Shown piece after piece: positions 3,388-49,999 of a stretch of 64,000 nt of DNA; position 1 is the stretch's first letter; every line of letters starts with the position of its first letter. Origin of the DNA: Minisyncoccota bacterium (lineage in GTDB: Bacteria > Patescibacteriota > Minisyncoccia > Phycocordibacterales > JABAAK01); NCBI GenBank assembly GCA_965204115.1, contig OZ241963.1:306489-370488 (forward strand). Reading direction: 5' to 3'. Position numbers and translations under genes: made by a program. The notes under the pieces were generated by a model. It saw nothing but the letters and a program-made list of their open reading frames with translations. It was not told the DNA's origin and did not search any database.

Positions 3388-4257
3388 CTATTCTCCCCCT
3401 TTGTTTGCAATAGATTGGAATGCTTTCAGGATTTCAACCGGGATAGCGAAGATGACGGTATTTGACTGATCGGAACTGAGGTCGTTGAGGGAATGGAGGG
3501 TGCGGAGGTGCAGCGATCCCTCTGACGCGGCAAGGATGGACGCGGCATCTGCGAGATTTTTTGAGGCAATTTTCTCACCCTCTGCCTTGATAATGACAGC
3601 GCGGCGCTCCCGCTCTGCTTCTGCCTCTCTCGCAAGAGTGCGCTTCATATCAGCCGGTAACTCAATGTGTTTCAAATCAACCGACTGCACTTTCACTCCC
3701 CATTTATCAGATGCGACATCAACAATTTTTTGTATCCGTTGCGACACCTCATCCCGCTTGGTCAGCAGCTCATCCAGCGTCACTTCGCCGACCACATCCC
3801 GCATCGTTGTCTGCGCTAATTGTGAAGTTGCCCGCGCGAAGTTCTCAACCTTCAGCACCGCCTTTTCAGCTGATTCAATATAAAAATACAGCACCGCGTT
3901 CACATTGATACTCACATTATCTTTCGTGATACAATCCTGATCCGGCACATCCACCACCTTGATACGCATATCAATAACGGTCATCTGCTGCACCCCGGGA
4001 AACACCCATCGCAGACCGGGTTGTCGCATGCCGGTATACTTTCCAAAAGTCAGTACCACCCCATTTTCATATTGATTAATGATATGCAATCCATACAGCA
4101 AAAAAGCAGTCAGTATTGCCGCCAGTACGCCGGCAACTTCGTTGGACAGCAGGCTGATTAGCAGGTAGGCAATTCCGGCACCAACTACTACAAATACCTG
4201 CCGTACAATCGCGGACTTTGCCACTTCCATACTTTGCTCTATTTCACTATCATTCAT
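3388..4257 (-). CDS. SPFH/band 7 (stomatin/prohibitin-like) membrane protein
   Basis: An N-terminal TM helix, then an SPFH core (VVLTFGKYTGMRQPGLRWVFPGVQQMTVIDMRIKVVDVP...) and a coiled-coil (REAEAERERRAVIIKAEGEKIASKN). The longest ORF extends to 4278; the likely start is MNDSEI at 4257. Confidence 0.8.
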   Translation of the reverse strand: MNDSEIEQSMEVAKSAIVRQVFVVVGAGIAYLLISLLSNEVAGVLAAILTAFLLYGLHIINQYENGVVLTFGKYTGMRQPGLRWVFPGVQQMTVIDMRIKVVDVPDQDCITKDNVSINVNAVLYFYIESAEKAVLKVENFARATSQLAQTTMRDVVGEVTLDELLTKRDEVSQRIQKIVDVASDKWGVKVQSVDLKHIELPADMKRTLAREAEAERERRAVIIKAEGEKIASKNLADAASILAASEGSLHLRTLHSLNDLSSDQSNTVIFAIPVEILKAFQSIANKGGE

Positions 4258-4295
4258 TGCTCTTAGTGTATCACACAATACATCTCACCGCCCTC

Positions 4296-5288
4296 CTACA
4301 ATACCCCAAGTATTTGTTTTACCTTTGTCAGCCGCTTAGTGAAGAGGGTGTCTAGTTTTTTTCGGTCGTGTGCCAGTATTTTTTCAAGATATTTTGTATC
4401 GTTGCTGATTTTTTCATATGTTTCCCGTGCGTCTTTGAAGTATGTGAGGTATTGCTCCGCCAGCAATTCTTTCAGTTCTTTGTAGGTGATGTCTCCCTTG
4501 CTGCAGCGATTGACCACCGTACCGTATTCCTCGCGGGGCATTATTTTTTCAAGATATGTGCACGGCAGACAGGTTTCCACATTGATCGGTTCGCCCTTTG
4601 GTGTTGAGTCGGTAACAATACTCATTATTCGTTTGCGCAGCTCTGCCTCATCGGCAAAAATCGGCAGCGTGTTCCCTTTTGACTTGCTCATCTTCTCGCC
4701 GTCTAAACCGGGGATGACTGCAACCTCTTTCTGTATCTGTTCCTGAGGTTCCGTAAAGCACACTTCACGCGCGGTGTGGTTAAATTTACGTGCCATCTCT
4801 CGTGCCATCTCCACATGCTGCGCCTGATCCTGCCCTACCGGCACCACCTCAGCGTCGGCAATTAAAATATCCGCCGCCATGAGCGCAGGGTACAGAAATA
4901 CTCCCAATCCGACATTCTGCTTTTCCTGCGCCGCATCCTTATACGCGTGCCCGATGGTCAAAAAATTATGTTTCAGCATACACGCAATGATCCACATCAA
5001 CTCGGTTACCTGCGGAAAATCCGATTGCCGATATACCATTGACTTTTTTGGATCTATCCCCAGTGCGATGCTTGCTGCGAGTAAGTGCCGGCTGTTTTTT
5101 GATCGCTCTGCGGCACTTTGCGGCGCCTGCTCATCACTTAAGTCTGTCAATGCATGCAGATCAGCGATGAAAAAATACAATTCGCCGGCATCCTGTGCCT
5201 CTACCATTTGCCGTACTGCGCCGAAATAGTTCCCTATATGCAAATCTCCCGTCGGCTGCAGCCCTGTCAAAATCCGTTTTTTAGCCAT
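4296..5288 (-). CDS. trpS: tryptophanyl-tRNA synthetase
   Basis: TGLQPTGDLHIGNY (HIGH region) and KMSKS motif; 330 aa. Confidence 0.9.
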   Translation of the reverse strand: MAKKRILTGLQPTGDLHIGNYFGAVRQMVEAQDAGELYFFIADLHALTDLSDEQAPQSAAERSKNSRHLLAASIALGIDPKKSMVYRQSDFPQVTELMWIIACMLKHNFLTIGHAYKDAAQEKQNVGLGVFLYPALMAADILIADAEVVPVGQDQAQHVEMAREMARKFNHTAREVCFTEPQEQIQKEVAVIPGLDGEKMSKSKGNTLPIFADEAELRKRIMSIVTDSTPKGEPINVETCLPCTYLEKIMPREEYGTVVNRCSKGDITYKELKELLAEQYLTYFKDARETYEKISNDTKYLEKILAHDRKKLDTLFTKRLTKVKQILGVL

Positions 5289-5297
5289 AGTGTACTC

Positions 5298-5306
5298 AGT
5301 ATACCA
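5298..5306 (-). promoter_or_regulatory. extended -10 promoter element TGGTATACT, 9 nt upstream of the trpS ATG (leaderless-type)
   Basis: Minus strand reads GGTGGTATACTGAGTACACTATG. The same motif and spacing recur at many starts in the window. Confidence 0.45.
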
Positions 5307-5313
5307 CCTTCAG

Positions 5314-7644
5314 TTACCTAATCCTCAGCACTTCCTCTGCGACATAGGCACCCTCTTCGGTGTTGGCGATTGCGCGGATGGTAACTTCTCGTTCGTTTTT
5401 GTCCAGTAACTTACTCGGGTCAAAGCTGAGCAGCGGGAGGTGTGATGATCCAATGAGGATGCTGTTGACATAGAATTCGTACTGGACATTTCGCACCGGC
5501 AACTTTGACAGGACGATAGTGGTGATCTCATCCAGATAGACGGTTGACCGAGGTGCTTTGATGGAAAAGTTTTTTTCAGTGTTTCCTCCGTTGAAGTCGT
5601 AATCGCCCTCTATCTCATTTTCCTCCAGCCAATTCTGCACGCCGTATTCCCAATACTCGTATTGCGGATCCTCTAAAGGATCATGCGGGCTTTGTGTCGG
5701 TCTGTCTCGCCGGATGTAATGCAGTATTGTGTGTGGGTCATCGGCGTCTATCCTGCCGAGTACTATTTCCGGAGACAGTTCCGGCGGAATAGTATTTCGT
5801 GTAAAGTATGACCCCGGCTCTCCATATTGCCCGGATACTGTTGTAACTATCTGCCTGAGTAGTGGCGCGAGATAAAACCCTGCAGCGTTGTTTTCCAGCG
5901 GTGTGTTATCCGAATTACCCGCCCATATCAGTACGACAATATCGGGAGAATATCCGACTATCCAAATATCACGAGAGTTGTTTGTTGTTCCGGTTTTCAC
6001 CGCGGTCGGCGGGTCGGTTATGTACATCGCTGAACCTCTGCCAAACACCGGCGCTCGCGCATCATCATCAAAGAGCATGTCGGTGATGTCTTGTGCTACA
6101 TTTCGTGCTAATACTCGCTTTTCTGCTTCCTTTTCTCCGTACTTCCATACATACGGCACCAGCACACCTTCGTTTGCAAATACACCATACGCCTGTGCCA
6201 TCTCCAGTGGTGATACTTCCGCACCGCCGAGCACTAAGCTTAGTCCATAGTGATTTTGTCCGTGTATCAGCGAGGTGATACCCATTTTCTTTGCCTGCCG
6301 AATCACCTCCGGCACATCCGCGAGATATAGTACCTTCACGGCCGGCACATTGATAGATTGCGCGAGCGCGTTCCGCAGTGATATCGGCCCGACAAAATTC
6401 CCGGTGTAGTTAATGGGTGAGTAACAGCCGCTTTTGGTGCTTTCAAACTGATCTTTTTCACAGAATGCGGTAAACTGTGTCGGCACATCGTATACAATTG
6501 TCCGCGGTGTGAGCCCTTTCTCAATCGCCTTGGCGTACGCTATCGGCTTGAACGTTGATCCCGGCTGCCGAAGCGAGGTGATGATGTTCACCCGCCCATC
6601 CACGGTATTGTCAAAAAAGTCCCGTGACCCGACCATAGAAAGAATCTCACCTGTTTTTGCTGAAAGCACAACGGACGCTATGTTGCTAACCTCAAACTGC
6701 TCTTCCAGATTTGTTTCTATAAATTCCCGCATCATCTTCTCAACCTCCTCCTGCAGTGCGACATCAATAGTTGTCTTGATCTGCTGCCCTTCAATATTTT
6801 TTAGTCCGGCACCATGCTCTTTCTCTAACTGCTCTTTTACGAAGAACACAAAATGCGGCGCGCGAATAGAAAAAGTGTCTTGGCTCTGAAAGTATACCTC
6901 CTCCGCCCGTGCCGCGCGATACTCATCCCTTGTTATGAGGTTGTGTCTCAGCATTAATTGTAGCACCTGATTTTTCCGCGCTTCAAGTGCTTTTCTGTTC
7001 CGCCCGTACGGCGAGTAGTAGGTCGGCGCTTTTGGAATTGCCGCGAGGTATGCTGACTCCGCAATCGTCAGCTCGCTCGCCTTTTTCCCGTAGAATGATT
7101 TGCTCGCTTCTGCCACTCCATAGGAGACACCGCCGTAGGATATGGTGTTGAGGTACATTTCAAGAATCTCCTCTTTCCCCAGCTGTTGCTCCAGTTTTAT
7201 CGCCAGCAGAAACTCTTTCATCTTTCGCTCTATCTTTTTCTCGGTGGTAAGAAACACATTTTTAACTACCTGCTGCGTGATCGTTGACCCACCCTGACTA
7301 AAGGACAGTGTGCGGATATTGTTGATGAGTGCGCGCAAAAACGCGTCAATACGAATGCCGTTATGCTCAAAAAACAGGTGGTCCTCTATTGCGATGGTCG
7401 CCTCAATCACATGCTCTGATATTTCCCCGTACGGCACAAAAGTCCGCTTCTCGTTAACAGAAAAATCAAACAAGAATTCGTCGTTCCGGTCGGTGAGTAT
7501 GACGGACTGCTTAGACGCGACATTGCGTATATCCACACCGGGCAATGGAGTAAATGTGTAGAATAGTGTTACATACCCCGCAGTAAAAAATGCCGCCGAC
7601 AGCGACAGGAGAGCGACATTTTTAATAGTGAGAAACTTTTTCAC
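5314..7644 (-). CDS. class A penicillin-binding protein (bifunctional transglycosylase/transpeptidase, PBP1A-like)
   Basis: An N-terminal TM anchor, a GT51 motif region (EDHLFFEHNGIRIDAFLRALINN, GGSTITQQVVKN), and a transpeptidase domain with STFKP and KTGT motifs. Confidence 0.9.
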   Translation of the reverse strand: MKKFLTIKNVALLSLSAAFFTAGYVTLFYTFTPLPGVDIRNVASKQSVILTDRNDEFLFDFSVNEKRTFVPYGEISEHVIEATIAIEDHLFFEHNGIRIDAFLRALINNIRTLSFSQGGSTITQQVVKNVFLTTEKKIERKMKEFLLAIKLEQQLGKEEILEMYLNTISYGGVSYGVAEASKSFYGKKASELTIAESAYLAAIPKAPTYYSPYGRNRKALEARKNQVLQLMLRHNLITRDEYRAARAEEVYFQSQDTFSIRAPHFVFFVKEQLEKEHGAGLKNIEGQQIKTTIDVALQEEVEKMMREFIETNLEEQFEVSNIASVVLSAKTGEILSMVGSRDFFDNTVDGRVNIITSLRQPGSTFKPIAYAKAIEKGLTPRTIVYDVPTQFTAFCEKDQFESTKSGCYSPINYTGNFVGPISLRNALAQSINVPAVKVLYLADVPEVIRQAKKMGITSLIHGQNHYGLSLVLGGAEVSPLEMAQAYGVFANEGVLVPYVWKYGEKEAEKRVLARNVAQDITDMLFDDDARAPVFGRGSAMYITDPPTAVKTGTTNNSRDIWIVGYSPDIVVLIWAGNSDNTPLENNAAGFYLAPLLRQIVTTVSGQYGEPGSYFTRNTIPPELSPEIVLGRIDADDPHTILHYIRRDRPTQSPHDPLEDPQYEYWEYGVQNWLEENEIEGDYDFNGGNTEKNFSIKAPRSTVYLDEITTIVLSKLPVRNVQYEFYVNSILIGSSHLPLLSFDPSKLLDKNEREVTIRAIANTEEGAYVAEEVLRIR

Positions 7645-7665: not shown

Positions 7666-8154
7666 TTATGACTGATGGGAAAGCAGTGGTGCGGATACGA
7701 GATGGGTAATGCCGACGGCGATAGCGTCATACTCATCATCGTGCCGCTTCTTGTGATCGAGAGCAATTAGTCGCGGCACCATGCGGATCATGTCTTGCTT
7801 GCCGGCATTGCCATTGCCGGTAATCGCACTTTTCACCTGATTCGGCGTGTATTCAGCGACTGACAAATTGCACTCTTTAGCCGTGTAGATGCATACTCCG
7901 CGAACCTCTGCTGTTTGCAGGGCGGTTTTCTTATTTTTCGCAAAAAATAGCCGCTCTATTGCCATGCAGTCCGGCTGATAGGTTTGTATGATGTTTTGCT
8001 CCCGGTCACCGACCTGCGTTAACCGCTCCTCAAACAGCAAATCTTTCTCTGTCTCAAAACACTCTGAAAATAACAGATTGGTTTTCCCACCTTCTTTTGT
8101 CAACACGGCAAAGCCAATGCGTCCGTATCCTGGGTCTATGGCGAGTACCTTCAT
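7666..8154 (-). CDS. ruvC: crossover junction endodeoxyribonuclease RuvC
   Basis: MKVLAIDPGYGRIGFAVL N-terminus (RuvC catalytic Asp); 162 aa. Confidence 0.9.
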   Translation of the reverse strand: MKVLAIDPGYGRIGFAVLTKEGGKTNLLFSECFETEKDLLFEERLTQVGDREQNIIQTYQPDCMAIERLFFAKNKKTALQTAEVRGVCIYTAKECNLSVAEYTPNQVKSAITGNGNAGKQDMIRMVPRLIALDHKKRHDDEYDAIAVGITHLVSAPLLSHQS

Positions 8155-8155: not shown

Positions 8156-8686
8156 CTATGCTCTGTTGGTGAGTATTTCCTGCGTGTCCTCCTGCTCTTC
8201 TAATGCGGCAACTAATGCATTCAGTTTTGCCATATCCTCCTCTGACAGTGGCACCGTAGTATTCGGCACAAGTTGCTCCCCCTGCTTTTCAAACACCCAT
8301 GCCGCTGACCCCGGCGTGCCGACAGTATACCCATTTTTCGTAACAATGTGCCGAATTTCTGCCGCCGTACGGTTCTTACTGTCCGTTAGGGTGTTGATCA
8401 GTATAGCGCACCCACCCGGACCATACATCTCATAGGTTATCGCCTCCAGTGACTCCGCGTCGCTTTCACTTCCCCGTGCGATTGCCCGATCAATATTTTG
8501 TGCCGGCATGTTTGCCGCTTTTGCCTGCTCAATCGCTGACTTTAATGAAGGACTGCTCCGATCCCCGCCACATTTCTTAGACTCAACCGTCAGCAGTTTT
8601 GCCAACTTACTAAACACCTTACTCTTCTGCGCATCAGTCCCCGCTTTCTTATGCTTAATTTTTGACCACTTATTATGCCCGGCCAT
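8156..8686 (-). CDS. yebC: YebC/PmpR family DNA-binding transcriptional regulator (short form)
   Basis: MAGHNKWSKIKHKKAGTDAQKSKVFSKLAK is the family signature. The -10 TATACT sits 9 nt upstream (8696-8704). Confidence 0.85.
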   Translation of the reverse strand: MAGHNKWSKIKHKKAGTDAQKSKVFSKLAKLLTVESKKCGGDRSSPSLKSAIEQAKAANMPAQNIDRAIARGSESDAESLEAITYEMYGPGGCAILINTLTDSKNRTAAEIRHIVTKNGYTVGTPGSAAWVFEKQGEQLVPNTTVPLSEEDMAKLNALVAALEEQEDTQEILTNRA

Positions 8687-8727
8687 AGTAGTATTAGTAT
8701 ACCAATAAAACCATTTTTTGTTAGAGT

Positions 8728-8800
8728 GATTGCAGGTAGGCGATGCCTTTCTCAGTGATGCTCCGTCCTCGCGGTGTTCGCTTTATAAATCCTGCTTGTA
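8728..8800 (-). pseudogene. diverged duplicate of the ruvB 3' end (encodes ...LLLQAGFIKRTPRGRSITEKGIAYLQSL*)
   Basis: The C-terminal 24 aa are 23/24 identical to the genuine RuvB C-terminus at 8971-9053, but about 17 of 24 codons differ at synonymous positions. It lies inside the 63-aa ORF 8721-8912. Confidence 0.6.
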
Positions 8801-8811
8801 GGAGCAAAGCA

Positions 8812-8919
8812 ACTAGTATGTTGCTTTGCGAGTAAGGTGCGACTGTCAAGTCGCACACTAAAATGACTAGTATGTTGCTTTGCGAGTAATGTGCGACTGT
8901 CAAGTCGCACACTAAAATG
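8812..8919. repeat. two tandem 54-bp direct repeats, each carrying the palindrome GTGCGACTGTCAAGTCGCAC
   Basis: Units 8812-8865 and 8866-8919 differ by 1 nt. A further palindrome GGTGTGCAATACAATGCACACC lies at 8942-8962. Confidence 0.85.
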
Positions 8920-8970
8920 AATTACATTTCTCTTCACGAGTAGGTGTGCATTGTATTGCACACCGCAGGT

Positions 8971-9957
8971 TCACAACGACTGCAGATAAGCAATACCCTT
9001 CTCAGTGATACTTCGTCCACGGGGCGTGCGTTTTAGGAATCCTGCTTGTATGAGAAAAGGTTCATGTACCTCCTCTACCGTACGAATGTCTTCAGAAAGC
9101 GTGGTGGCGAGAGCCTGGATGCCGACCGGGCCGCCATTGAATGCTTCATGGATGGTTTTGAGGACAATGCGGTCTTCGGCGGTGAGTCCGTGTTCGTCTA
9201 TATCGCGCTCAGAGAGCGCGTTTTGGACAATTTCGGAGGTGATGGCTGTGTTATATATCTGGGCGTAGTCCCGCACTCGCTTGAGAAGGTAGTTGGCGAT
9301 TCGGGGGGTATTGCGGGCGCGCTGGGCAATGACAGCCGCAGCTTGCTCCGGCATGGTTATGTCAAGTACTGCCGCGGACCGCAGTACAATTTGCGCGATT
9401 TCGTCTTCAGTGTAGGGAATCAGACGCATCACACCACCGGAAAATCGCGTGCGAAGCGGTGTTGAGAGTTTTCCGACTTGTGTTGTTGCCGCGATGATGA
9501 CAATCGGCGGGAGGTTGATCTCAACAGAGCGAGCGGTTGGACCCTTGCCGACAATGATAGAGATATTACCGCTCTCCATAATGGGGTACAGCACTTCTTC
9601 TATGTTTTTACTGAGCCGATGTATCTCATCTATGAACAGCACCCCGCCGTTCTCCATGGCTGATGCAAGCGATACAATGTCGCCTGCCCGCTCTATCATC
9701 GGTCCTGAGGTGGTGTGTACCGGCACCTCCAGTACTGAGCCGATGATGTACGCCAGTGTTGTCTTGCCGAGCCCTGCCGGGCCGTAGAGCAGGACATGTT
9801 CAGGCATCTGCCCCCGCTCTTTTGCTGCCTCTATGAGGATGTTCAGGTTTTTCTTTATCATCTCCTGTCCGATATACTCGTCCCACACTTTTGGACGCAA
9901 TAAGCTGTCCAGTGAGTGGTCTAATGGCTGTTTGCTTTCTACGGCAATGTCGTTCAT
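8971..9957 (-). CDS. ruvB: Holliday junction branch migration helicase RuvB
   Basis: AAA+ Walker A LYGPAGLGKTTLA, an IDEIHRL sensor and a winged-helix C-terminus; 328 aa. Confidence 0.95.
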   Translation of the reverse strand: MNDIAVESKQPLDHSLDSLLRPKVWDEYIGQEMIKKNLNILIEAAKERGQMPEHVLLYGPAGLGKTTLAYIIGSVLEVPVHTTSGPMIERAGDIVSLASAMENGGVLFIDEIHRLSKNIEEVLYPIMESGNISIIVGKGPTARSVEINLPPIVIIAATTQVGKLSTPLRTRFSGGVMRLIPYTEDEIAQIVLRSAAVLDITMPEQAAAVIAQRARNTPRIANYLLKRVRDYAQIYNTAITSEIVQNALSERDIDEHGLTAEDRIVLKTIHEAFNGGPVGIQALATTLSEDIRTVEEVHEPFLIQAGFLKRTPRGRSITEKGIAYLQSL

Positions 9958-9978: not shown

Positions 9979-11658
9979 TCATATCACTACACCGATAACC
10001 CGCTCAATTTCTTCCAAAGAGGTGATGCCTTTCAGCACCTTCCAGAGTGCGTCATCCTCCATAAACGGAAGCCCCTGTTTCCGCACTTCTGCGCGCAGTG
10101 TGGCAACCCCGCTCTCTTCCCGAATCACCCGCTCTATCTCATCGTTCACCTCAAACACCTCAAACACACCGATTCGCTTTTTGTATCCGTCGTTGCATTC
10201 CTGGCACTGTGGTGATGCTTCGCTTGGTCTTTTGATAGCATTTAAATCAAACTCCTCTTTATACCGCTCCGGAAATCGTTCTATCATCTGTTGTATTTTT
10301 TCTTTTTGCTCGTTCGTTAGCGGATGCTGTTCTGAGCAGACGGGGCACAGCTGCCGCACCAGTCGCTGTGCGATGACGATATTAATCGCTCGTGAAAATG
10401 CCTGCGGATCCACCTCAAACTGCAATAGTCGCGGCAGCGCGCCGAGCGCGTCGTTTGTGTGCAGGGTTGAAAATACTAAGTGTCCTGTCAATGCCGCCTG
10501 TACCGCCACCTGCGCGACTTCGGCATCACGAACCTCACCGACCAGAATAACATCCGGATCCTGCCTGAGGATGGCCCGTAGCCCTGAAGCGAACGAGTAG
10601 TCCTTATCAATTTCCGTCTGCACAATCCCCTCAAGCCGATACTCAATCGGGTCTTCCAGCGTTACGGTCTTGATATGCTCCCCTTTTACCTCGTTTAAAA
10701 ATGAGTACAGTGTCGTTGTCTTCCCCGACCCGGTCGGCCCTGTGTTCAAAATCATTCCATTCGGTCGTTTAATATGTTTCATAAATACCTCAAGTACCAC
10801 CGGATGAATTCCCAGACGCTCAATGCTATGCAGCACATTTCTCGGATCAAGGAGTCGTATGACGAATGAGCCGCCCTCGTCCTCCGGTATCACAGATGAC
10901 CGCATGCTTAATGTTCTTTTCGGAAGGTGTACCACGAAACCACCGTCCTGTGCCCCCCTTGCGGTTATTTTCATACCGGAGACCAGCTTCATCCGCGTCA
11001 CCATTTGTTTGTACTCCAGTTCATTGAGTTCGGTCATGTCGGTCAGCACTCCGTCTATGCGATACCGTATCACACCGCCCTCCTGTGCCGGCTCAATGTG
11101 TATATCAGACGCGTTTACTGCAACTGCCGTTGCCACGACATACTCTATATTTTTTGACACCCGATGCGCTCGGCTCATTTTTTTGAGCTCACGCAGCACC
11201 TCTCGCACCGCTTCAACTGATTGGATGCTTTGTATTTTTTCTTCCAGTTCTTCATTCGTGATAGACAGTGTTCCCGGCGCAGTCGCGCTTGTGGTGATGA
11301 TGTCCTTGTAGTACATCCATATTTGCTTCAGTGTTTTGGTTGATGCGAGGGTTATGGTGTGCGAGTACCCTTTTTCTTCCAACATGCGGAGTATTTCCGC
11401 CAGTTTTTCATTATTCGGCTCATTCACCGCTACCGTCAGCACCCCCTTCAGCCGCTTATACACCGCCATCTTCCCCTCCCGCGCATCAACTTCTTTCACC
11501 AATTGCAGTGCGTCAGGATTCACCTGCACATCAGTGATGCGAATTGCGGGATATTGATACTTCTTAGAAAGGTAATCCATTAACCGCTCCTCTTCCTCTT
11601 CTCGGTGCTCCCGCAAATCTTTTTGAAATTCCTGCACTGGTGCATTAACGACAGTCAT
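9979..11658 (-). CDS. pilB: type IV pilus assembly ATPase PilB/GspE family
   Basis: A T2SSE N-terminal domain, Walker A NTGPTGSGKTTTLYS, the Asp/His boxes, and a C-terminal tetracysteine CPVC...CQEC. The longest ORF runs to 11745; the likely start is MTVVNA at 11658, with TATACT -10 7 nt upstream. Confidence 0.9.
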   Translation of the reverse strand: MTVVNAPVQEFQKDLREHREEEEERLMDYLSKKYQYPAIRITDVQVNPDALQLVKEVDAREGKMAVYKRLKGVLTVAVNEPNNEKLAEILRMLEEKGYSHTITLASTKTLKQIWMYYKDIITTSATAPGTLSITNEELEEKIQSIQSVEAVREVLRELKKMSRAHRVSKNIEYVVATAVAVNASDIHIEPAQEGGVIRYRIDGVLTDMTELNELEYKQMVTRMKLVSGMKITARGAQDGGFVVHLPKRTLSMRSSVIPEDEGGSFVIRLLDPRNVLHSIERLGIHPVVLEVFMKHIKRPNGMILNTGPTGSGKTTTLYSFLNEVKGEHIKTVTLEDPIEYRLEGIVQTEIDKDYSFASGLRAILRQDPDVILVGEVRDAEVAQVAVQAALTGHLVFSTLHTNDALGALPRLLQFEVDPQAFSRAINIVIAQRLVRQLCPVCSEQHPLTNEQKEKIQQMIERFPERYKEEFDLNAIKRPSEASPQCQECNDGYKKRIGVFEVFEVNDEIERVIREESGVATLRAEVRKQGLPFMEDDALWKVLKGITSLEEIERVIGVVI

Positions 11659-11726
11659 TGCTGTCAGTATAGCATACACGCCCGTGAGGGTAACAAAGTA
11701 CAATACCGTTTGCGGCGATGAGCGGT

Positions 11727-13052
11727 CTACAGCCGAAGCATCCAAAGTGCCATATCATACTTGTTCACAAAAAAGAGGAATTCTCCATCCGGGGTGAGCT
11801 GCGGGTGTATGACATCAAAGTTCGTGTTTCTGGAAAGTATTTGAATTTCTTCCTGATTAGGTGCGAGTAACAGATCCTTTTCTCCGGTTGCGGCGTTCAC
11901 TGACACGATTACATCGTCAAAGGTGATGTCCCCCTGATACCATGAATCGGGAAATACTGTGTCATAGCCGGAAACTGTTTCAATGGGGATGGATATCGGC
12001 GCGGCACAGACAAATATGCCGTTCGCCGCATCGCACTTCTCAGGTAGTGTGATCGGGAGATCAATGGTAATACTCCGATCCCGATTGGTGATAACTGCTT
12101 TTCCGGCAAAATTATCCGCCTTTGTTTCAAACAGCATAAAATATCCCGTTGTTGCGTCCATAAACGCAGACCCGCCGGATGCGAGAGATACAAACTGTTC
12201 ATTCGGCAGCACTCCCTTCGGGTCAACGAGGTAGATGAATCCCTTCATCATGTCGGTAATCGGTGTGTGGAGGGTGATACGCGGACTGTTGCCCCAGCGT
12301 GGCAACCATGAGGCGAAATCTGACCGCCATATTACCTGTGTTTTTGATGGATTTGCCACATCAACAACAACCCCGACGGATTTGCCGTCAATCATCTGCA
12401 GAAAAAAGAGGAGGTTTTTATTATTCGTAGCAACCCGAATATTATCCTCAAACCGCTGCACGCTCGGACCGGTGCCGGTTGTAGAAAATGGTACAAACGC
12501 TGATCGCACCACGGATTCATTATCGGCACTTTCATACAGCACCAGCACTTCACCGTTCTCAAACGGATACCCTTCAATAACCCGAGTAAATTCACCGCGC
12601 GCGGTCAGTGACAGTGAGTATGGGATGGTCTGTACCAGGTATCGATTCCCCCGCCCCTGCTCAATGACCTGTGCCTCCCATGCGTCTCCTTTTTTTTCAA
12701 TGCGATACCCCGCCGTCGGGCCTTTGAACAGCCGCACTAATCGCGGTATGTTTTCTTTGTCTTCAGTACCAGGGTCACTGGTATCAGATAGCGGAGCTGT
12801 GTATACCCGATCATCCCGCCCCTTTCCGTCACTATCATCGGAAACTGAAGGATTAAAAGGTATTTCATCCGGTCTTGACACCCCAAGATTGTCCAGACCA
12901 AGCGATGGCGCTGTCGGTGCCGGTGGCCCATCGGGTGGTGGCGCGGGTGCCGGCGGCTCTGCTGAAAGATATAGGTAGATACCCGCAAACAGCAGCGCAC
13001 AAAATACCAGAAAAATAATAATGGCGATGGTGAACCGTTTTGTAGGGGTCAT
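11727..13052 (-). CDS. hypothetical membrane-anchored secreted protein with Pro-rich linker and a beta-rich C-terminal domain
   Basis: Likely start is MTPTKRF at 13052 (TATACT -10 8 nt upstream). It has a signal-anchor (IAIIIFLVFCALLFAGIYLYL), a PAPAPPPDGPPAPTAP linker and a C-terminal domain. Confidence 0.5.
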   Translation of the reverse strand: MTPTKRFTIAIIIFLVFCALLFAGIYLYLSAEPPAPAPPPDGPPAPTAPSLGLDNLGVSRPDEIPFNPSVSDDSDGKGRDDRVYTAPLSDTSDPGTEDKENIPRLVRLFKGPTAGYRIEKKGDAWEAQVIEQGRGNRYLVQTIPYSLSLTARGEFTRVIEGYPFENGEVLVLYESADNESVVRSAFVPFSTTGTGPSVQRFEDNIRVATNNKNLLFFLQMIDGKSVGVVVDVANPSKTQVIWRSDFASWLPRWGNSPRITLHTPITDMMKGFIYLVDPKGVLPNEQFVSLASGGSAFMDATTGYFMLFETKADNFAGKAVITNRDRSITIDLPITLPEKCDAANGIFVCAAPISIPIETVSGYDTVFPDSWYQGDITFDDVIVSVNAATGEKDLLLAPNQEEIQILSRNTNFDVIHPQLTPDGEFLFFVNKYDMALWMLRL

Positions 13053-13303: not shown

Positions 13304-15409
13304 TTAATGGCTTCTTGGCTGTAGACTCGACTGGATGGGTACCCCAGCCGGTACAGATGTACCCTGTTTCACTTCATCGCGTGCTGAACCTCTGGTATTT
13401 TCATCGGGGCAGCCTATGACTGGCGGTGCAACGCTAGAAAGTTTTCCGCTATTCTCGTTTCCCTCTCGCAACACCAGGAAACACGCTGTTTCTCCTCTGA
13501 GCGGTTCTTTACATTGGCCAGTCTTTTTACCCTTCTCATTCACCAGCACCAGCATGGGGGTTATTCGAAAAATATCGTTGTGGTTGACTTCCCCAATTTT
13601 GACAACCCAGGGACCCGCTGTGCTGTCCGTTATTTTGAATGTAACCTTTTTGCCATTACCTGTTGAACTATACACTCCTTTACTGGTTGTGCAATCAGAT
13701 GAATCTTTTTTCGTACAATATTGGACCTTTCCACTGTCAATATGGTAGCCGGTTACAATTCCTTCAACACTGCTGAAGATGCGACCGGGGTTTTGAATGG
13801 CTGGAAAATCGATGGTAATAAATTCACCGTTCTGATTGCGAGTAATCCCTTGAGCAACAGTTATATTGCCGCTGAGTTTTACTTTTTCTTTTCCTAAGGT
13901 AATGCAGTCATCAGCATCAAATTTAGGCTTATGCCTCCATGGCTTCCCGCGCCAAAATTTTACCACCTTCCCTGGATCCTTTTCATCTTTCTTCACCACA
14001 ATAGATACGATAGGAAAGACAGCGATAATGTCTGAATTTTTTATTGTCGCCTTTATCTTTGTCTGTGGTTCGCTTGTGCACTTCCTGACGCCGACCAAAC
14101 TATCACCTCCTTCCGACTGGTCTCTGATCTTGTCAAATGCCCTATCCTCTCCTTCCTCGGACACCTTTACCTCTCCGCCAAAATCTGAATATAAAATCTG
14201 ATAATGGTACTGTAGCGGGACAGTGGTGGAATAGGGTCCCTGCTGCAGTGACTGCCTCACACTTTCTACTTGCCCTTTGAAATTATCTTCAATATCAGGG
14301 CATGCACTTATGGTTAGGAGTCCTGTCTCTTTATCGTAGTTGACGGCCTTATCCGGGACGGAAAGATTGGCTGTAACCAGGTTGTTACCTTGCCCGACTT
14401 CCCGCAGCTGGGTGATTGTTTTGAATAGTTGCGGACGGAGGAGTGAAGGGTCAATAAAGTCAAGGATAATCCATGAGAGGAGCAGGATGATGGTGCCGAT
14501 GGCGGCTGCCACCACTCTCTTTTTTGCATCGGAGAAACCCGAGACATTTCCGGTGAACTCGGCGTAGATCATTTGGGTGCCGTGTACGGCAAGCATTACT
14601 ACCATCAAAATTCCGGAAACGGTGAAAATGACACGGAAGAACCGGGTGAAAAATTTTTGAATTAAGCCGCTTACCGCTTCCTGATTGGCATCAGTTGTAT
14701 TAATTCTTTCTGCGCCCCAAATACTGCTGTAGAGATTGAGTATTGTCGGGCTTCCTTTTGTGATGCTCTTACTTGTGGTTGTTGACGCTGTTTCATCATC
14801 GTCGTCGCTGTCATCTCCATTGGCGGATTGAGCGTTTGTAGCAAGGCCATTATGTATGTCTTGTGTAATATCTCTTGTTATGAATTGTATATTTTTACTT
14901 CCCGCCGCTTCTTTGTATCCGACATAGACACAGAGCGTGTGTATTTTTTCCTCAGGATTGTTAATGCTATAAGGAGCAAAAAGGTTGCTTGTTGGTGTTA
15001 TAGATATTGTTGCTGCTGCAGGGTTAAATGCTTCAAAAAGTATGTTGTCAAAAAAATCTGGGTCATTGTTCTCTTCTTCTATTCTTACAAATTCCTCCTT
15101 ATACGCCTCAGCACCCTTTAGGACGAGGCCGTCATCACCGCATTCAACATCAGAACTCCCCGCTACAAATCCATAGCCCCAGTAGTATGTATATGTCAAA
15201 TCATCCTGAGAAACGAGGCTGCGAAGATCAGAAAACCGTGTATTTACTACATATTCATACGTACCTGGATCTTCTCGTTTTTCTCCTGCGGATATAAAAG
15301 TAGGGCGACCCAGATTCGCCTGTGCAAACAACACGCCGCCCATTAATCCGCAGATACTACAGACGAAAAGTAAACTGAATATCAGATTGTTGTAAATCTT
15401 TGTTTTCAT
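13304..15409 (-). CDS. large envelope protein with a signal peptide, Asp-rich segment and a central two-helix membrane hairpin (TrbC/VirB2-like topology)
   Basis: Likely start is MKTKIYNNLIFSLLFVCSICGLMGGVLFAQA at 15409. The hairpin is FFRVIFTVSGILMVVMLAVHGTQMIYA-loop(GFSDAKKRVVAAA)-IGTIILLLSWIILDFI, followed by a ~390-aa C-terminal domain. Confidence 0.5.
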   Translation of the reverse strand: MKTKIYNNLIFSLLFVCSICGLMGGVLFAQANLGRPTFISAGEKREDPGTYEYVVNTRFSDLRSLVSQDDLTYTYYWGYGFVAGSSDVECGDDGLVLKGAEAYKEEFVRIEEENNDPDFFDNILFEAFNPAAATISITPTSNLFAPYSINNPEEKIHTLCVYVGYKEAAGSKNIQFITRDITQDIHNGLATNAQSANGDDSDDDDETASTTTSKSITKGSPTILNLYSSIWGAERINTTDANQEAVSGLIQKFFTRFFRVIFTVSGILMVVMLAVHGTQMIYAEFTGNVSGFSDAKKRVVAAAIGTIILLLSWIILDFIDPSLLRPQLFKTITQLREVGQGNNLVTANLSVPDKAVNYDKETGLLTISACPDIEDNFKGQVESVRQSLQQGPYSTTVPLQYHYQILYSDFGGEVKVSEEGEDRAFDKIRDQSEGGDSLVGVRKCTSEPQTKIKATIKNSDIIAVFPIVSIVVKKDEKDPGKVVKFWRGKPWRHKPKFDADDCITLGKEKVKLSGNITVAQGITRNQNGEFITIDFPAIQNPGRIFSSVEGIVTGYHIDSGKVQYCTKKDSSDCTTSKGVYSSTGNGKKVTFKITDSTAGPWVVKIGEVNHNDIFRITPMLVLVNEKGKKTGQCKEPLRGETACFLVLREGNENSGKLSSVAPPVIGCPDENTRGSARDEVKQGTSVPAGVPIQSSLQPRSH

Positions 15410-16358
15410 TTTGAGCAAATACACGAACAGGTATCTCGGCACCTTCCCCGCGGACAGAAATATCAAGCTTTCTGCCCTCCTTGAGGTGGCTTGCCTCGTT
15501 GTTCACAAACCATTTATATTGTATCGCATTTTTTTCAAAATCGGACTGACTGAAGTAAAACGGGTACACCGAAGCCGTCACTTCCTCGCTGCCGGGCGAA
15601 AGATATTCAGAAAAAACCCGATCCCGCGAGAGTCCGTATAGGAGTGTGTGAGGATACACCAGCAGCCGCGGCTCAACAATAGGCACATTGGTTACTTTTT
15701 CAAAAGAGACCCTGCCACTGCTGATGAGCGTTGCCTCTACCCGCACGATAATATAGCGGTTGAGGTAGCTCCCTCCTTTTTCATACACTACGCTGCTTGC
15801 CGCCGGACCACGCTCGTCGTGGTAGCGCGATTCAATCATCCAGCGGAATGAAAAATCTTTTTCGGTGTAAATAATACCGCTCTGATCAATATACTGCACC
15901 TTTGCTGAAAGCTTTATCGGTGTCTGTGGTCCCGCTAGCCGGTGCCCTCGATACAGCGGCGTGACAACCGAGTCCGCCTCCCAGAGAATATCAAAAACAA
16001 CCGGTCGTATCCATCGGGAAATATTGGCAAATCGCCGCTGCCCCTGTGAATCAAAGTACTGTATCCGCGCAACAACCTGTTTCGGCACGCTACCGGCAAT
16101 TTCAGTAATCTTCGTCTTGTTTGTATATGCCGCCTGTTCAATACCGTCAATCTGCCAGATAATTGAATGGATACTGGAGACAAACGACTGGTTAGAGCGA
16201 ATGGTGAAATCAACATACTCGCCCGGCGACGGGTAGGGTTCACTCACCGATATCTCATACGCGCTGTAGCTCCCCTGCTCTTGCCCGAATACTATGGGAG
16301 TCAGTAAAAAACCCGCTAACAAAACAGCATAGAGCCAAAAAAGAAATGCAATCCGCAT
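15357..16358 (-). CDS. hypothetical secreted protein
   Basis: 333 aa with an N-terminal signal peptide (MRIAFLFWLYAVLLAGFLLTPIVFGQ). TATACT -10 lies 8 nt upstream (16367-16374). Confidence 0.5.
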   Translation of the reverse strand: MRIAFLFWLYAVLLAGFLLTPIVFGQEQGSYSAYEISVSEPYPSPGEYVDFTIRSNQSFVSSIHSIIWQIDGIEQAAYTNKTKITEIAGSVPKQVVARIQYFDSQGQRRFANISRWIRPVVFDILWEADSVVTPLYRGHRLAGPQTPIKLSAKVQYIDQSGIIYTEKDFSFRWMIESRYHDERGPAASSVVYEKGGSYLNRYIIVRVEATLISSGRVSFEKVTNVPIVEPRLLVYPHTLLYGLSRDRVFSEYLSPGSEEVTASVYPFYFSQSDFEKNAIQYKWFVNNEASHLKEGRKLDISVRGEGAEIPVRVFAQNENKDLQQSDIQFTFRL

Positions 16359-33651: not shown

Positions 33652-36600
33652 TTAATTATTGCTGTAAACAGAAAAATGATCATCGTAATTGCCAAGGAGC
33701 GCATTACTCTCCATTCCTGGTATGCCTTTGATGTGGTCTACAACATCGCTATTTCTTGTTTCGAACACGGCTCGTAACCCGGCATTGCCGGCTTCTTCAA
33801 TGAATGTTTTTACCTTCCTTTTGAATGCTTCTTTTTCGGTGTCTGTAAGATTCTTATAGATGACGGGGCTTCCATTTTTTCTAAAAGCAATGTCAACGCA
33901 GGTGCCGGTATAGTGACAGTTGTTGCTATGTGGTCGTGTCGGCGGCCATGCTTCAGTTACTATCCATGTAAAATCTTCAATATTTTTTTTGAGACTGCTT
34001 TGTAATTTTCCTGCGAAACCGCTAACTACTTTATTGCTCTCAGCCTCTTTGAGCAAACCTGATGGGAGGTCGTTGCAGTTATTACAACTACAGTTCAGGC
34101 CTGATTTTCTTCTACTTCTCCGTCTTAGATGCCCTTCACATACTGCAATCTCTGCATCTTGTTCGCCCTCTTGTGGTCCTGCGTTGCCGCCCCTGTTATC
34201 ATCAGCCGGTGATTGACCGGAGGTTCTTCCTGGTGCCGGCTCCATATCATCCACAGGAGGCAGTTCTGCTTCGTTCCACTGGAACGGATTGCCCAAGTTG
34301 TAGCCGATGATATTAAATCCTGCGTTGACGATGAGGTAGGCACTGAGGATGAATATCAGCCCGAAGAGTATCGCTCTGAGTGCGTCCTTCACTTTCTTTC
34401 GCGCTTCCTGATCGCCTCCTTTTACGAACACATTAATTGCTAATACTGCCCCTCGGTAGAAAATGAGTATTCCCGCGCCGGTGATTGCAAGCCATAGCAG
34501 GAGTTTCATTATATTATTCGCTAATTCAAATAGGTGCTCTATACCACAATCATTTCCTTCCCCAAAACTGCAATTTACGATGAGGTTTGACTCTTCTACC
34601 TGATCATTACTGGTAATACTCACGGAATAACTACTGCTGGCAGTGGGGCTTCTACCGCTAACTGAACAGGTAATTGAGCCGGACGACTCAGGTGTGTCGT
34701 CATCAGTGGTTTTCATGGTAAAAGAGCCGGTGGTGTCCCTTTGGGTGGAGAATGAGAGCGGCGTAGCACCCCACGCGCCTCTTTCTTTGCAAGAGACCGT
34801 GAAACCCTCTTCTGTCGCATCTTGCCGCCGAGTAATAGTCCACTTAATACTTTCTCCCTCGGAAATACGAGCGTTATCTGCCTCTATGGTAAAAGGAGGC
34901 GGATTGGCGGGAGATGATAAGCGTGGATCGGGTGGTGCGTTGCCGCCATCATCACCGTTCCCGTTGTCGCCATTACCATTGCCGCCATTGCCACTGTCTG
35001 TCGTTGTTGTCGTAGAATCTACAGTACCGTCTTCATTAACGGTGGTACGATGTGTTTGTTCAATCTCATTTGAGAAATCGTCAGTTGTTCTCACAACAAC
35101 TTCCAGATTGGTTTCTCGGTCCGGGTCTACGGCATTAGGGATGGTTATACTCCAAGCGCCAGTTTCCGAATCAGCAGTAACAATGCTGAGATCTTCACTC
35201 AACGGTATGGTGGCTTCATTGCTTGTTACGGAAACAGCGGCAACCGTTGAGCCGGGTTCCGCCGTGCCGGATATGGTGGCCGACGGGGCGGCAGGGGCTC
35301 CTCCGACAGAAAATCTGATACCTCTGTTATAGGTGGTGTCTATGGTCACATAGTACTCCGCCTTCTCATAGTCAGTATTAGTATCATCTTTTCTGGAGGC
35401 GAAACAGAAAGTGTATCCGTTATCAGTCGCCGCACCAAGAGTGACCGGAGAGCCTTCTGTGTAGGTATTTTCCAATCTATCCCATACATAAATATCGGAA
35501 CCGCAAGGTTGATTTTTATATATTTTCTGCATCCGCCACGAAGTCTCTCCACGAGGATAATTATCAGTTGCGCGGAAAGTTATTGATTGTACACGACTCC
35601 CACGATTATTTTCCATCCCTGCAGGATTTGTCTCTTTATCAAAAGTTATGACAACCGGTCTATCGTCTAAAGCCCCTCCTTCTTGACGGTCACCCCAAAA
35701 GCAAATTGCCGTACTCCCTCCATACCCGCGGCATTGATATGAATTACTTGTGCCACGGGGAGGTGACTGCGCACAACGACAGCCACCAGGCGCACACTTA
35801 CCATTGAATACACTTCCTGCGCTACAGCCCTCACAAGTTCCGGAATTATTTCCACCGTTCTTTCCCTCACAATACCACGCGGCAAAAGTTCCTAAGTTTT
35901 GCCGGCAAAAACAAGCCCATGTAGCGGATGCGGTTGATGCGCTTATTTCAGTGCCGGCGACACACCTTGTTTGAAATGTGCCGCATTTGCCATCCACTAC
36001 ATTTTTTACTGTAACTGTTATTGTTCCACTTTTTCCTTGTGGGTCCTCATTGCATTGATCGTGAATGGGATTTCCACCCTCTCTCGGAGTGTCAGTGATC
36101 TCCCCGGTACAGAAATACGCTGAAAAATTTATAGTATATATATCTTCATCTTTTGTGTCTTCCGCAACCTCAGGAGCATTTGTTATTCTGATCATCTTAT
36201 CATTGGCTCCCTCCCGGGATTCATAGGTAATCCCTTCTGGGGCTTCTATCTCTATCCGCTTCATATATGCCCCTTCCTTGTTTGCGCCGGTAAAACAACT
36301 TTCATAAATATCCAACCAGGCACTTTCTTCCTGAAGTTCTTTCACTTCAAGCTCACAATCACCTGATCTATATTCCACGCTTCCCTCATACTCATTCTTA
36401 AAGATCATCCCTAACAATGTTTCACCATCGTTGCTGCTTTTGTTGTTAGGGTCACACGATAAATCATTGTCAATTTGTTCCGGTGTCTTTTCCCACCAAT
36501 CAATTTTCACAAAATCAGGCAAATCCCGCTTAAGTGTTTTGTTGATCTTGTCATTTTTAGGGTTTTGATAAAATATCCTGTATATTGCAAATTTTCCAAC

Positions 36601-36936
36601 ACCTGCAGGGTCATCCAAACCGCCGCCGTCTCTGTCTTTGACATGCTCCACCGTAAACCAATTGTTCTCAAGATTTTGATTTGGCTGTACCTCAGAGCAG
36701 TCAATACTATTAAATGGGATTTCAATTATTTTATTATTAATTTGAGATTCGCCGTTGACCGACTCAAAGTTCTTTTCAAAGGACCACTCACTTGTTGTGG
36801 TAAATACCTCGGGCCATGTCTCAGGACGAATTATTACCCCTTGTTTACCTTGCCCATACAGATTTACGGAAAAAAGGAATAAGAGGGATGGGACGATGAT
36901 AAAAACACCCAAAAGTGTCAATATATATATGCGCAT
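33652..36936 (-). CDS. giant (~1094 aa) secreted cysteine-rich surface protein with a C-terminal two-helix membrane hairpin and a putative LAS/M15-like peptidase domain
   Basis: Likely start is MRIYILTLLGVFIIVPSLLF (ATG 36934-36936, TATACT -10 9 nt upstream). It has a Cys-rich module, a GNGGNGNGDNGNG low-complexity stretch, the hairpin LLLWLAITGAGILIFYRGAVLAINVF-KGGDQEARKKVKDALRA-ILFGLIFILSAYLIVNAGF, and a C-terminal domain with HYTGTCVD (HxxGxxxD) and later DH motifs. Confidence 0.6.
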   Translation of the reverse strand: MRIYILTLLGVFIIVPSLLFLFSVNLYGQGKQGVIIRPETWPEVFTTTSEWSFEKNFESVNGESQINNKIIEIPFNSIDCSEVQPNQNLENNWFTVEHVKDRDGGGLDDPAGVGKFAIYRIFYQNPKNDKINKTLKRDLPDFVKIDWWEKTPEQIDNDLSCDPNNKSSNDGETLLGMIFKNEYEGSVEYRSGDCELEVKELQEESAWLDIYESCFTGANKEGAYMKRIEIEAPEGITYESREGANDKMIRITNAPEVAEDTKDEDIYTINFSAYFCTGEITDTPREGGNPIHDQCNEDPQGKSGTITVTVKNVVDGKCGTFQTRCVAGTEISASTASATWACFCRQNLGTFAAWYCEGKNGGNNSGTCEGCSAGSVFNGKCAPGGCRCAQSPPRGTSNSYQCRGYGGSTAICFWGDRQEGGALDDRPVVITFDKETNPAGMENNRGSRVQSITFRATDNYPRGETSWRMQKIYKNQPCGSDIYVWDRLENTYTEGSPVTLGAATDNGYTFCFASRKDDTNTDYEKAEYYVTIDTTYNRGIRFSVGGAPAAPSATISGTAEPGSTVAAVSVTSNEATIPLSEDLSIVTADSETGAWSITIPNAVDPDRETNLEVVVRTTDDFSNEIEQTHRTTVNEDGTVDSTTTTTDSGNGGNGNGDNGNGDDGGNAPPDPRLSSPANPPPFTIEADNARISEGESIKWTITRRQDATEEGFTVSCKERGAWGATPLSFSTQRDTTGSFTMKTTDDDTPESSGSITCSVSGRSPTASSSYSVSITSNDQVEESNLIVNCSFGEGNDCGIEHLFELANNIMKLLLWLAITGAGILIFYRGAVLAINVFVKGGDQEARKKVKDALRAILFGLIFILSAYLIVNAGFNIIGYNLGNPFQWNEAELPPVDDMEPAPGRTSGQSPADDNRGGNAGPQEGEQDAEIAVCEGHLRRRSRRKSGLNCSCNNCNDLPSGLLKEAESNKVVSGFAGKLQSSLKKNIEDFTWIVTEAWPPTRPHSNNCHYTGTCVDIAFRKNGSPVIYKNLTDTEKEAFKRKVKTFIEEAGNAGLRAVFETRNSDVVDHIKGIPGMESNALLGNYDDHFSVYSNN

Positions 36937-37002
36937 ACTATTGTCAGTATACTGCACGAAACATACTTGTAGTGCCTATGCGGCTGTGCTATCATATATC
37001 CT

Positions 37003-49129: not shown

Positions 49130-49999
49130 GTGAAGTTTAATCAGGCAAAGCACTTATTTTTAGAGCATATTGAGTTGGGGCTCGGGCGGTCATTGAAAAC
49201 TGTTGAAAATTATGACCGTTATTTAAATCAATTTGCCAACCTGACCGGCGTAAAAACGATCGGCCAGATAACCGAGCCGGTGGTGCACACCTTTCGTCTC
49301 AAGCTTAATCGAAAAGGCAGCCTCAAAAAAACAACCCAAAATTACTACCTCATTGCCTTGCGGATGTTTCTGAAATATCTGGAAACTACCGGCAAACAAT
49401 CTCTCTCGCCGAACACTGTGGTGCTGGCAAAAACCGGCAGTCGAGAGATAGATGTGATTACTACCGATGAGTTGAGGCGGCTGTTTGACGCTACGGACGG
49501 CGGGAAAATACAAGATTTCCGTGACCGTGCGATTATTGAGACCCTCTTCTCAACCGGATTGCGTGTCTCAGAGCTGATAATGCTTCCGCGGGACATTGAC
49601 CTGACAGCGAAAGAAGTAGCCGTCCGTGGCAAAGGCGAAAAAGTGCGTGTGGTCTTTTTTTCTGACCCGGCAATAGAAGCGATCCATATCTACCAAAAGA
49701 AACGAAAAGATATGTCCCCCGCTCTCTTTGCTGGGGAGCGGAGTAAAGGACATCTCACCGCCCGCACCATAGAGCGTATTATTGCAAACCGCGCTCGGCA
49801 GGCCGGCATCTCAAAAAAAGTAACGCCGCACATCCTCCGTCACATGTTTGCCACTACCCTTCTTTCAAACGGTGCGGACATTCGTGCTGTTCAGGAGATG
49901 CTCGGGCACAGTAATATTGCCACCACCCAGGTTTACACGCACATCACTAACAAGCAGCTGAAAGAGGTGCATAAACATTTTCTCCAGAAGCCAAAATAA
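49130..49999 (+). CDS. tyrosine site-specific recombinase (XerC/XerD family)
   Basis: An N-terminal SAM-like domain, then the catalytic R...HxxR...Y region (HILRHMFATTLLSNGADIRAVQEMLGHSNIATTQVYTHI). Confidence 0.85.
   Translation: MKFNQAKHLFLEHIELGLGRSLKTVENYDRYLNQFANLTGVKTIGQITEPVVHTFRLKLNRKGSLKKTTQNYYLIALRMFLKYLETTGKQSLSPNTVVLAKTGSREIDVITTDELRRLFDATDGGKIQDFRDRAIIETLFSTGLRVSELIMLPRDIDLTAKEVAVRGKGEKVRVVFFSDPAIEAIHIYQKKRKDMSPALFAGERSKGHLTARTIERIIANRARQAGISKKVTPHILRHMFATTLLSNGADIRAVQEMLGHSNIATTQVYTHITNKQLKEVHKHFLQKPK

Follow-up and report, generated by a model that had tools for sequence, protein, structure and literature searches.

We analysed a 64,000-nt stretch of the genome of a Minisyncoccota bacterium (contig OZ241963.1, positions 306,489 to 370,488; hereafter the window) and found that the gap between ruvB and its downstream neighbour yebC holds a second, diverged version of the 3' end of ruvB. 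The version that completes ruvB in frame (copy B) is followed by an array of hairpins and then, 250 bp downstream, by the displaced version (copy A). Our favoured reading, to which we assign a probability of roughly 0.45, is that gene turnover at a recombination hot spot of Kaiserbacteria-like Patescibacteria left this arrangement as a scar, through one-sided illegitimate recombination. The feature is real, well explained and ordinary in kind; there is a modest chance that it marks a new ruvB-specific mini-element.

The end of ruvB is present in two synonymously diverged copies

The direct repeat joins positions 8728-8809 to 8978-9059 (82 nt, 79% identity, spacing 250). Read in frame, it reaches the stop codons of both copies and comprises 26 codons, or 89 nt per copy; the original prediction, made from the sequence of this site, had correctly noticed that the ruvB end is duplicated and had counted 24 codons. 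The ruvB reading frame closes in copy B, where the TGA stop occupies 8971-8973. Over the 26 codons the two copies differ at 19 nucleotides, 16 of which are synonymous changes at third positions, and at two amino acids, one I/L exchange lying inside the repeat and another at the boundary codon. The nearly identical peptides and the excess of synonymous differences that were first reported (about 17 sites) therefore hold up at 16 of 19, with two amino-acid differences in place of the single one claimed.

By the Nei-Gojobori method, the proportion of synonymous differences between the copies (pS) is 0.77 and that of non-synonymous differences (pN) is 0.05. When the same number of substitutions was placed at random in 100,000 simulation runs, the mean was 11.3 amino-acid changes and the minimum 5, and none of the runs gave two or fewer. 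Judged by these values and simulations, both tails have evolved under purifying selection. They would differ almost only synonymously because both worked as ruvB ends in separate lineages until recently, in agreement with the earlier proposal that one tail came from a diverged lineage and left the gene intact.

This pattern bears directly on two other explanations. A tandem duplication of the ruvB end in place, followed by divergence, would explain why both copies carry a lineage-specific Lys (KRTPRGR) where other lineages have Glu, but an untranslated copy should gain mostly non-synonymous changes, whereas copy A has kept its peptide and its stop. Moreover, the distance between copies A and B (20/81) is greater than that of either copy to the relative L003 (13 and 15), and the material between the tails is not a copy of the native downstream sequence. 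We rejected this highly improbable explanation on the synonymous bias and the distance matrix.

A diversity-generating retroelement (DGR), with its variable repeat at the gene end and its template repeat downstream, would have a similar layout of gene end, hairpin and second copy 250 bp away, and real pairs of this kind occur in a related locus (L055) of the candidate phyla radiation (CPR). Here, mismatches fall at adenines in only 8 of 20 cases if copy A is taken as the template and in 3 of 20 if copy B is, the changes are synonymous, which is the opposite of diversification, and there is no reverse transcriptase among the 56 window open reading frames (ORFs) screened. The mismatch spectrum refutes a DGR, whose chance we put at close to nil; the L055 pairs show a clear adenine-specific pattern instead. 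In that distant CPR locus we observed two classic template/variable pairs (7361-7496/7827-7962 and 363-488/759-884) at the 3' ends of two minus-strand genes, the downstream copy reading AAC/AAT where the gene copy varies.

Relatives have empty sites or differing inserts

We compared the ruvB neighbourhoods of twelve close relatives (RuvB identity 82-100%), given here by locus numbers. Six of them (L003, L007, L008, L087, L088 and L089) have an empty site, in which the ruvB stop is 11-46 bp from yebC and the ruvB tail runs straight into the yebC promoter. Copy A and its downstream TAA-caaaaa...tatact are collinear with this empty site, L003 reading TAA-caaaaa...tattgatatact-ATG. Since copy A is thus collinear with the ancestral arrangement, copy B and the hairpins are the extra material, and the insertion scar originally proposed for the ruvB terminus is borne out by the six empty-site relatives. 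We also aligned both tails with the ruvB genes of the relatives, as had been suggested as a check; the distances do not tell which tail is foreign, and neither they nor sliding identity polarise the event, which only collinearity with the flanks does.

A sister strain (L001) has the same architecture, with three 54-bp hairpin units versus two in the window, and differs from the window by only 10 single-nucleotide polymorphisms (SNPs) over 7 kb. Because L001 was assembled independently, an assembly artefact is unlikely. A further relative, L090 (96% RuvB identity), has the same TGA and first hairpin, after which its contig ends.

Four relatives have other inserts in the gap. L002 has an orphan 444-aa gene on the opposite strand (3979-5313) that overlaps the ruvB stop by 9 bp, and sequence searches of Pfam, PADLOC, PHROG and PDB matched nothing to its protein. 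L004 has a 479-aa AAA_14/STAND-like NTPase (4985-6424), which PADLOC matches to the candidate defence system PDC-S01 (E 1e-32). L005 and L094, which are one contig, have a 2037-aa Ig-like/cohesin surface protein and a T4SS-pilin-like protein of 323 aa (L094:11258-18372), and L006 has hairpin units with a 60-aa ORF. Neither a second ruvB tail nor, in the cargo, a recombinase domain is present at these filled sites (L002, L004, L005 and L006). The ruvB-yebC gap is a strain-variable hot spot with candidate defence and surface-protein cargo in sister lineages, and it is therefore useful for strain tracking and for finding accessory genes.

Across all loci compared, a search for a second RuvB tail returned one further case, L027 (CAZOAK010000004.1), a distant CPR genome whose RuvB is 55% identical to that of the window.

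Divergence and SNP patterns point to recombination at the site

In the four closest lineages, pS is 0.50-0.85 in the ruvB tail versus 0.30-0.39 in the gene body. This roughly twofold synonymous divergence of the last 26 codons is found in every close pair, including L002 versus L003, which are free of the duplication. Window and L003 are 83-87% identical over the final 300 nt of ruvB and throughout yebC, and mostly about 87-96% identical further out. Compared with L090, the 3' half of copy B differs at 3 of 39 nt and the stretch just after the TGA at 1 of 25 nt (4/64 in all), whereas the adjoining 42 nt upstream have 10 differences.

Between the window and L001, five of the 10 SNPs lie within 21 nt of copy A (8775-8795; Bonferroni P about 2e-8), and four of these five match the state of copy B, forming a conversion-like patch. 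From these signs of divergence and patching, the tails appear to be old, separately evolving alleles that are still being shuffled.

The tails are separated by a hairpin array

The two 54-bp units between the tails are 98% identical and each holds a 20-nt palindrome, GTGCGACTGTCAAGTCGCAC. A third palindrome, GGTGTGCATTGTATTGCACACC (8943-8964), belongs to a degenerate first unit and forms its hairpin, with arms GGTGTGCA and TGCACACC enclosing TTGTAT; the start of this unit recurs in L090 and, less closely, in L005. The original description of two 54-bp repeats with 20-bp palindromes and a third palindrome is thus accurate, and had missed a fourth, terminal hairpin (8804-8829). The hairpins have a 7-6-7 or 8-6-8 layout of arm, spacer and arm. 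Folded as RNA, the gap forms four stable hairpins (z = -6.3), and the inserts of L027 (z = -7.3) and L006 (z = -4.2) fold likewise.

Parts of the array recur at other filled sites. Over 35 nt (86%) the terminal hairpin region is homologous to L006, where two base pairs have changed in a compensatory way and one by wobble. L004 (about 4845-4945) and L005 (about 4060-4165) have in common a module of about 100 nt with two palindromes (ATTTYAGTGT...ACACTRAAAT), which stands ahead of their unrelated cargo. In L004 these palindromes overlap a perfect TTGACA-17-TATACT promoter, and the module looks like a portable operator/promoter. Furthermore, the 10-mer ATTTTAGTGT that begins each window unit also begins palindromes in the L004 and L005 inserts. 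The L006 homology, the module of L004 and L005 and the common 10-mer suggest that the array of hairpins is what is left of a module that stands at the ruvB-proximal edge of hot-spot inserts.

We considered whether the array is kept for a function in cis; it could, for instance, terminate or stabilise the transcript of ruvB, or be bound by a regulator ahead of yebC-ruvC. In that case the duplicated tail would be a by-product of the arrival of the array, which is compatible with a scar as well as with a mobile element. The stable folds of the three inserts argue for such a function, as does the terminal hairpin, whose pairing survives two double changes between the window and L006. Window and L090 differ at 1 position in the first 25 nt of the insert although pS in the ruvB body is 0.35, and related palindromes overlap the L004 promoter. 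However, most relatives do without the array, copy number differs between near-identical strains, and neither a U-tract terminator nor a promoter is predicted inside it. Searches of Rfam at gathering and E-value thresholds gave no family match and nothing credible, and no tRNA- or tmRNA-like gene was found. On this evidence we regard a retained cis function as quite unlikely.

Two further features of the array are recorded here. Because the unit is 54 nt (18 codons) long, two of the three frames in the ruvB sense are open through the array (8721-8912 and 8752-8961, minus strand); one of them (63 aa) enters copy A in frame, with no function suggested, and a translated search of both against 5.8 billion proteins gave no match. 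In addition, the first hairpin (8943-8964) has a loop and 3' arm, ATACAATGCA, that resemble the left edge of the duplicated tail, ATACAAGCA (9045-9055), and the L027 insert starts with CACCGCGGGAG, which nearly repeats the left edge of the L027 tail, CCACGCGGGAG. Chance or a relic of a recombination site could explain these resemblances.

The unit is not dispersed and no dedicated enzyme lies near the site

Mismatch-tolerant pattern searches found neither the 54-bp unit nor its palindrome elsewhere in the 64-kb window (0 expected by chance). Regular-expression scans of 95 sources, amounting to 1.5 Mb of related loci, found no unit beyond the ruvB site. Exact 20-mer scans gave three unrelated high-GC chance matches in Joint Genome Institute (JGI) metagenomes and none in IMG/VR, where a degenerate palindrome scan gave seven chance matches inside phage genes, nothing related, and where no phage attachment site (attP) bearing a ruvB tail was found.

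Among the 56 ORFs screened there is no integrase, transposase or reverse transcriptase near the site, the 250-bp insert is free of such ORFs, and the genes around it have housekeeping roles. The only recombinase found in this screen is an XerA-like gene at 49130-49996, about 40 kb away. Its product, a tyrosine recombinase, scores 247 bits against the archaeal XerA equivalog, above the cut-off of 220, and falls below the bacterial XerC/XerD cut-offs.

These results set the remaining parts of the original prediction apart. Its statement that no integrase is adjacent agrees with the ORF list and with the screen. Its suggestion of an element resembling a miniature inverted-repeat transposable element (MITE) is not supported: no second copy exists in the window, the 1.5 Mb of related loci, the JGI metagenomes or IMG/VR. 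The insert ends have no terminal inverted repeats (best end-to-end inverted match 5/40) and no short target duplication. A dispersed repeat of the MITE or repetitive extragenic palindromic (REP) type was rejected on the lack of dispersed copies and of terminal inverted repeats, and on a flanking repeat that is 82-89 nt long and diverged. An insertion had also been said to be refuted if the unit and the duplicated segment were absent elsewhere and the divergence of the tails were random; the unit is absent elsewhere in our searches, and the divergence is not random, as the simulations above show.

A proposed scar of one-sided illegitimate recombination

The default in the clade is the ruvB stop, 11-46 bp and then yebC, with differing inserts in the gap of several lineages. 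Under the favoured reading, insert-bearing and empty alleles would pass between lineages, probably following DNA uptake, through homologous recombination in the genes on either side. In an ancestral exchange between an insert-bearing and an empty allele, we suppose that only one end was homologous and that the other was joined illegitimately, at a microhomology of a few bases beside the terminal hairpin (...GCTCC/TACAAGCAGG..., the slash marking the junction). Such a process would be homology-facilitated illegitimate recombination, as defined in PMC3240628. It would leave two allelic ruvB tails in tandem, with copy B and its TGA linked to the hairpin module and completing ruvB, and with copy A and its TAA linked to the yebC promoter and no longer part of ruvB. 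The 54-bp units may be leftovers of a palindrome-rich edge module whose copy number now shifts by slippage, and the two tails, or copy A and incoming ruvB alleles, may still trade short patches by gene conversion.

A passive scar of this kind would explain why no enzyme is found, why the varied cargo comes without duplications, why both flanks are diverged and why the distribution is confined to one locus. The lineage is plausibly transformable, by analogy: the window encodes type IV pilus genes (a pilB-like ATPase and pilM), and a preprint (PMC10187176, of PMC10633639) reports natural competence for cultured Saccharibacteria.

A site-specific mini-element as the main rival

The main rival to a passive scar is a miniature, protein-less, site-specific integrative element that would insert at the conserved 3' end of ruvB and, by means of a surrogate tail, leave the gene intact. 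It would be a remnant of the cis-mobilisable type or a user of the host Xer, moved by a recombinase encoded elsewhere and acting in trans. Crossover would fall within a 13-nt block of identity at the left edge, and the palindromes would be putative binding sites for the recombinase or for accessory proteins. We hold this explanation to be somewhat unlikely.

Several observations nevertheless count in its favour and weigh against an illegitimate join. The longest identical block of the two tails, TACAAGCAGGATT (13 nt), lies exactly at the left edge of the duplication, as the core of an attachment (att) site would; a second block of 11 nt lies in the middle, and the sizes of both are compatible with chance in conserved coding sequence. 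The geometry of the palindromes, 7-6-7 or 8-6-8, is typical of tyrosine-recombinase core sites, and the window has one XerA-like recombinase gene. At the proposed illegitimate junction the microhomology spans just 1-4 nt, which is indistinguishable from chance: the right junction (...GCTCC/TACAAGC) has only CTC.T in common with ruvB at the homologous point, and the left junction is by its nature not visible. The sequences compared do not settle which of the two alleles would have been the resident.

The distant genome L027 provides a parallel. Its 81-nt tail (10585-10665) is repeated at 10819-10899 with 98% identity around a 153-bp hairpin insert, an independent arrangement of tail, insert and tail that is absent from L011 and L022, the nearest relatives of L027 compared. 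The insert contains GCGACTT(N)ACAGTCGCA, which matches the window palindrome at 16 of 17 positions (alignment p about 0.007), and TACTCGCAA stands just before the displaced tail, as it does in the window. Within the 1.5 Mb, the GCGACTT(N)ACAGTCGCA motif occurs only in these two inserts and in the unrelated metagenome contigs L091-L093, which entered the set via the exact 20-mer scan itself. Recurrence at the same gene end in L027 favours a site-specific process. When the palindrome is masked, however, the remaining similarity between the two inserts is marginal (p 0.09), and the left edges of the two duplications differ by 11 codons. The L027 junction has the microhomology ACTC/ACTC.

A mini-element would also be consistent with flanking repeats built from the end of the target gene, with the existence of relatives that have an empty site, and with the closeness to L090 of the 3' half of copy B and the insert start, compared with the 42 nt upstream, as if this segment had spread horizontally. 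Precedent comes from tycheposons, integrated elements flanked by one host and one element att copy, of which integrase-less remnants are known (10.1101/2020.12.28.424599). Conversely, no integrase is found in or beside the insert in the window, L001, L027 or the other filled sites, and other inserts at the site come without a tail duplication. In IMG/VR there is no phage or viral contig with a ruvB tail, nor one with the palindrome in a related context, and no second copy in any sequence searched.

A bolder version holds that the window and L027 inserts belong to a new family of tiny (150-300 bp), protein-less, hairpin-built elements that home to the ruvB 3' end of Patescibacteria. Such elements would carry or regenerate a surrogate tail of about 80 nt and would be moved in trans by an XerA-like or other enzyme acting on palindromes of the GCGACTT..AGTCGC type. 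We think this unlikely to be true.

Genomic context and significance

The features of the site are collected in Table 1.

Table 1 Features of the ruvB-yebC site and its neighbours in the window, in order of position on the minus strand
Feature	Positions	Strand	Basis and remarks
pilB-like ATPase	9979-11745	-	ORF list
ruvB, 328 aa	8971-9957	-	NCBIfam RuvB equivalog, 411.8 bits; homologues up to 100% identity
Copy B, in-frame surrogate ruvB tail, 26 codons + TGA	8971-9059	-	Repeat and alignment
ruvB-yebC gap, 284 bp	between 8971-9957 and 8156-8686		
Degenerate first unit, directly after the ruvB stop	8920-8970	-	Tandem Repeats Finder, 2.4 copies at 84%; RNA fold
54-bp hairpin unit, copy 2	8866-8919	-	Palindrome 8891-8910
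54-bp hairpin unit, copy 3	8812-8865	-	Palindrome 8837-8856
Terminal hairpin, GCAAAGCAAC-N6-GTTGCTTTGC	8804-8829	-	Inverted repeat; adjoins copy A
Copy A, displaced tail, 26 codons + TAA (8721-8723)	8721-8809	-	Out of frame with ruvB
yebC promoter-like site (predicted)	8696-8724	-	Promoter scan; CTAACA, 17 nt, TG-TATACT
yebC, 176 aa	8156-8686	-	First gene downstream of the insert; matches NCBIfam YebC family
ruvC	7666-8154	-	Downstream of yebC
Class A penicillin-binding protein		-	After ruvC

The nearest RuvB homologues are from uncultured Patescibacteria, and the nearest named genomes by RuvB are Candidatus Kaiserbacteria L007 (90%) and Paceibacterota L008 (87%). The first hexamer of the predicted yebC promoter overlaps the stop codon of copy A, and its second box, GGTATACT, lies 12-14 nt ahead of the yebC ATG and is kept in all relatives. 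YebC is only 176 aa long in the window, as it is in several close relatives having the complete gene; the window protein covers just the first ~137 of 245 positions of the YebC/PmpR model and scores below the curated cut-off, and a look-up of its exact sequence gave no record.

Elsewhere in the window, very large proteins of 720 aa (13307-15466), 1101 aa (33655-36957) and 1398 aa (58587-62780) have no domain match or a weak T4SS_pilin match, as is typical of CPR surface and pilus dark matter. Among the other loci, L060 has two perfect 55-nt direct repeats (3101-3155/3256-3310 and 11782-11836/11937-11991), both with 155-nt spacing.

The site offers a base-pair view of how streamlined, uncultured Patescibacteria gain and lose material inside a core recombination operon (ruvB-yebC-ruvC) with both genes unbroken: the surrogate tail leaves ruvB complete, and the predicted yebC promoter is retained along with the displaced tail. 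Should a true ruvB-tail-specific element lie behind the recurrence in L027, it would be exceptionally small for a site-specific mobile element and would offer a way to study recombination enzymes in a phylum for which genetics hardly exists.

Comparison with known systems

Families of REP sequences, bacterial interspersed mosaic elements (BIMEs) and MITEs are defined by many dispersed copies. The window array resembles them in its short, stable, tandem hairpins just after a stop codon and in its variable copy number, but its unit is confined to a single locus and comes without terminal inverted repeats or a short target duplication. Integrative mobile elements exploiting Xer (IMEX) and pdif-type modules are similar in having no recombinase of their own, short palindromes with a 6-nt spacer and, as here, a host with a single XerA-like recombinase. 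Unlike them, the site studied here lies inside ruvB and not at the chromosome dimer-resolution site, and binding of Xer to its palindromes is conjectural.

Elements that integrate at gene 3' ends, including tycheposon remnants with partial tRNAs (10.1101/2020.12.28.424599), have in common with our site the repeats of the target end, one from the host and one incoming, an intact target gene, an empty site in relatives and a hot spot with varied cargo. In contrast, no integrase is present here at any filled site, the element would measure only 250 bp, its target would be a protein-coding gene, ruvB of Patescibacteria, and identity between the repeats is 79%, not nearly 100%.

The scars of homology-facilitated illegitimate recombination known from naturally transformable bacteria (PMC3240628) differ from the window in that they are usually insertion-deletions rather than an 89-bp duplication; in the window, moreover, junction microhomology is minimal and competence is presumed. 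Nevertheless, they involve foreign or diverged DNA anchored by homology on one side and by microhomology on the other, without a dedicated recombinase, as is proposed for the window, and the ruvB-yebC site is likewise flanked by conserved core genes. In the window, the pS of 0.77 and the raised divergence of the flanks point to an incoming segment from a diverged relative, as in those scars.

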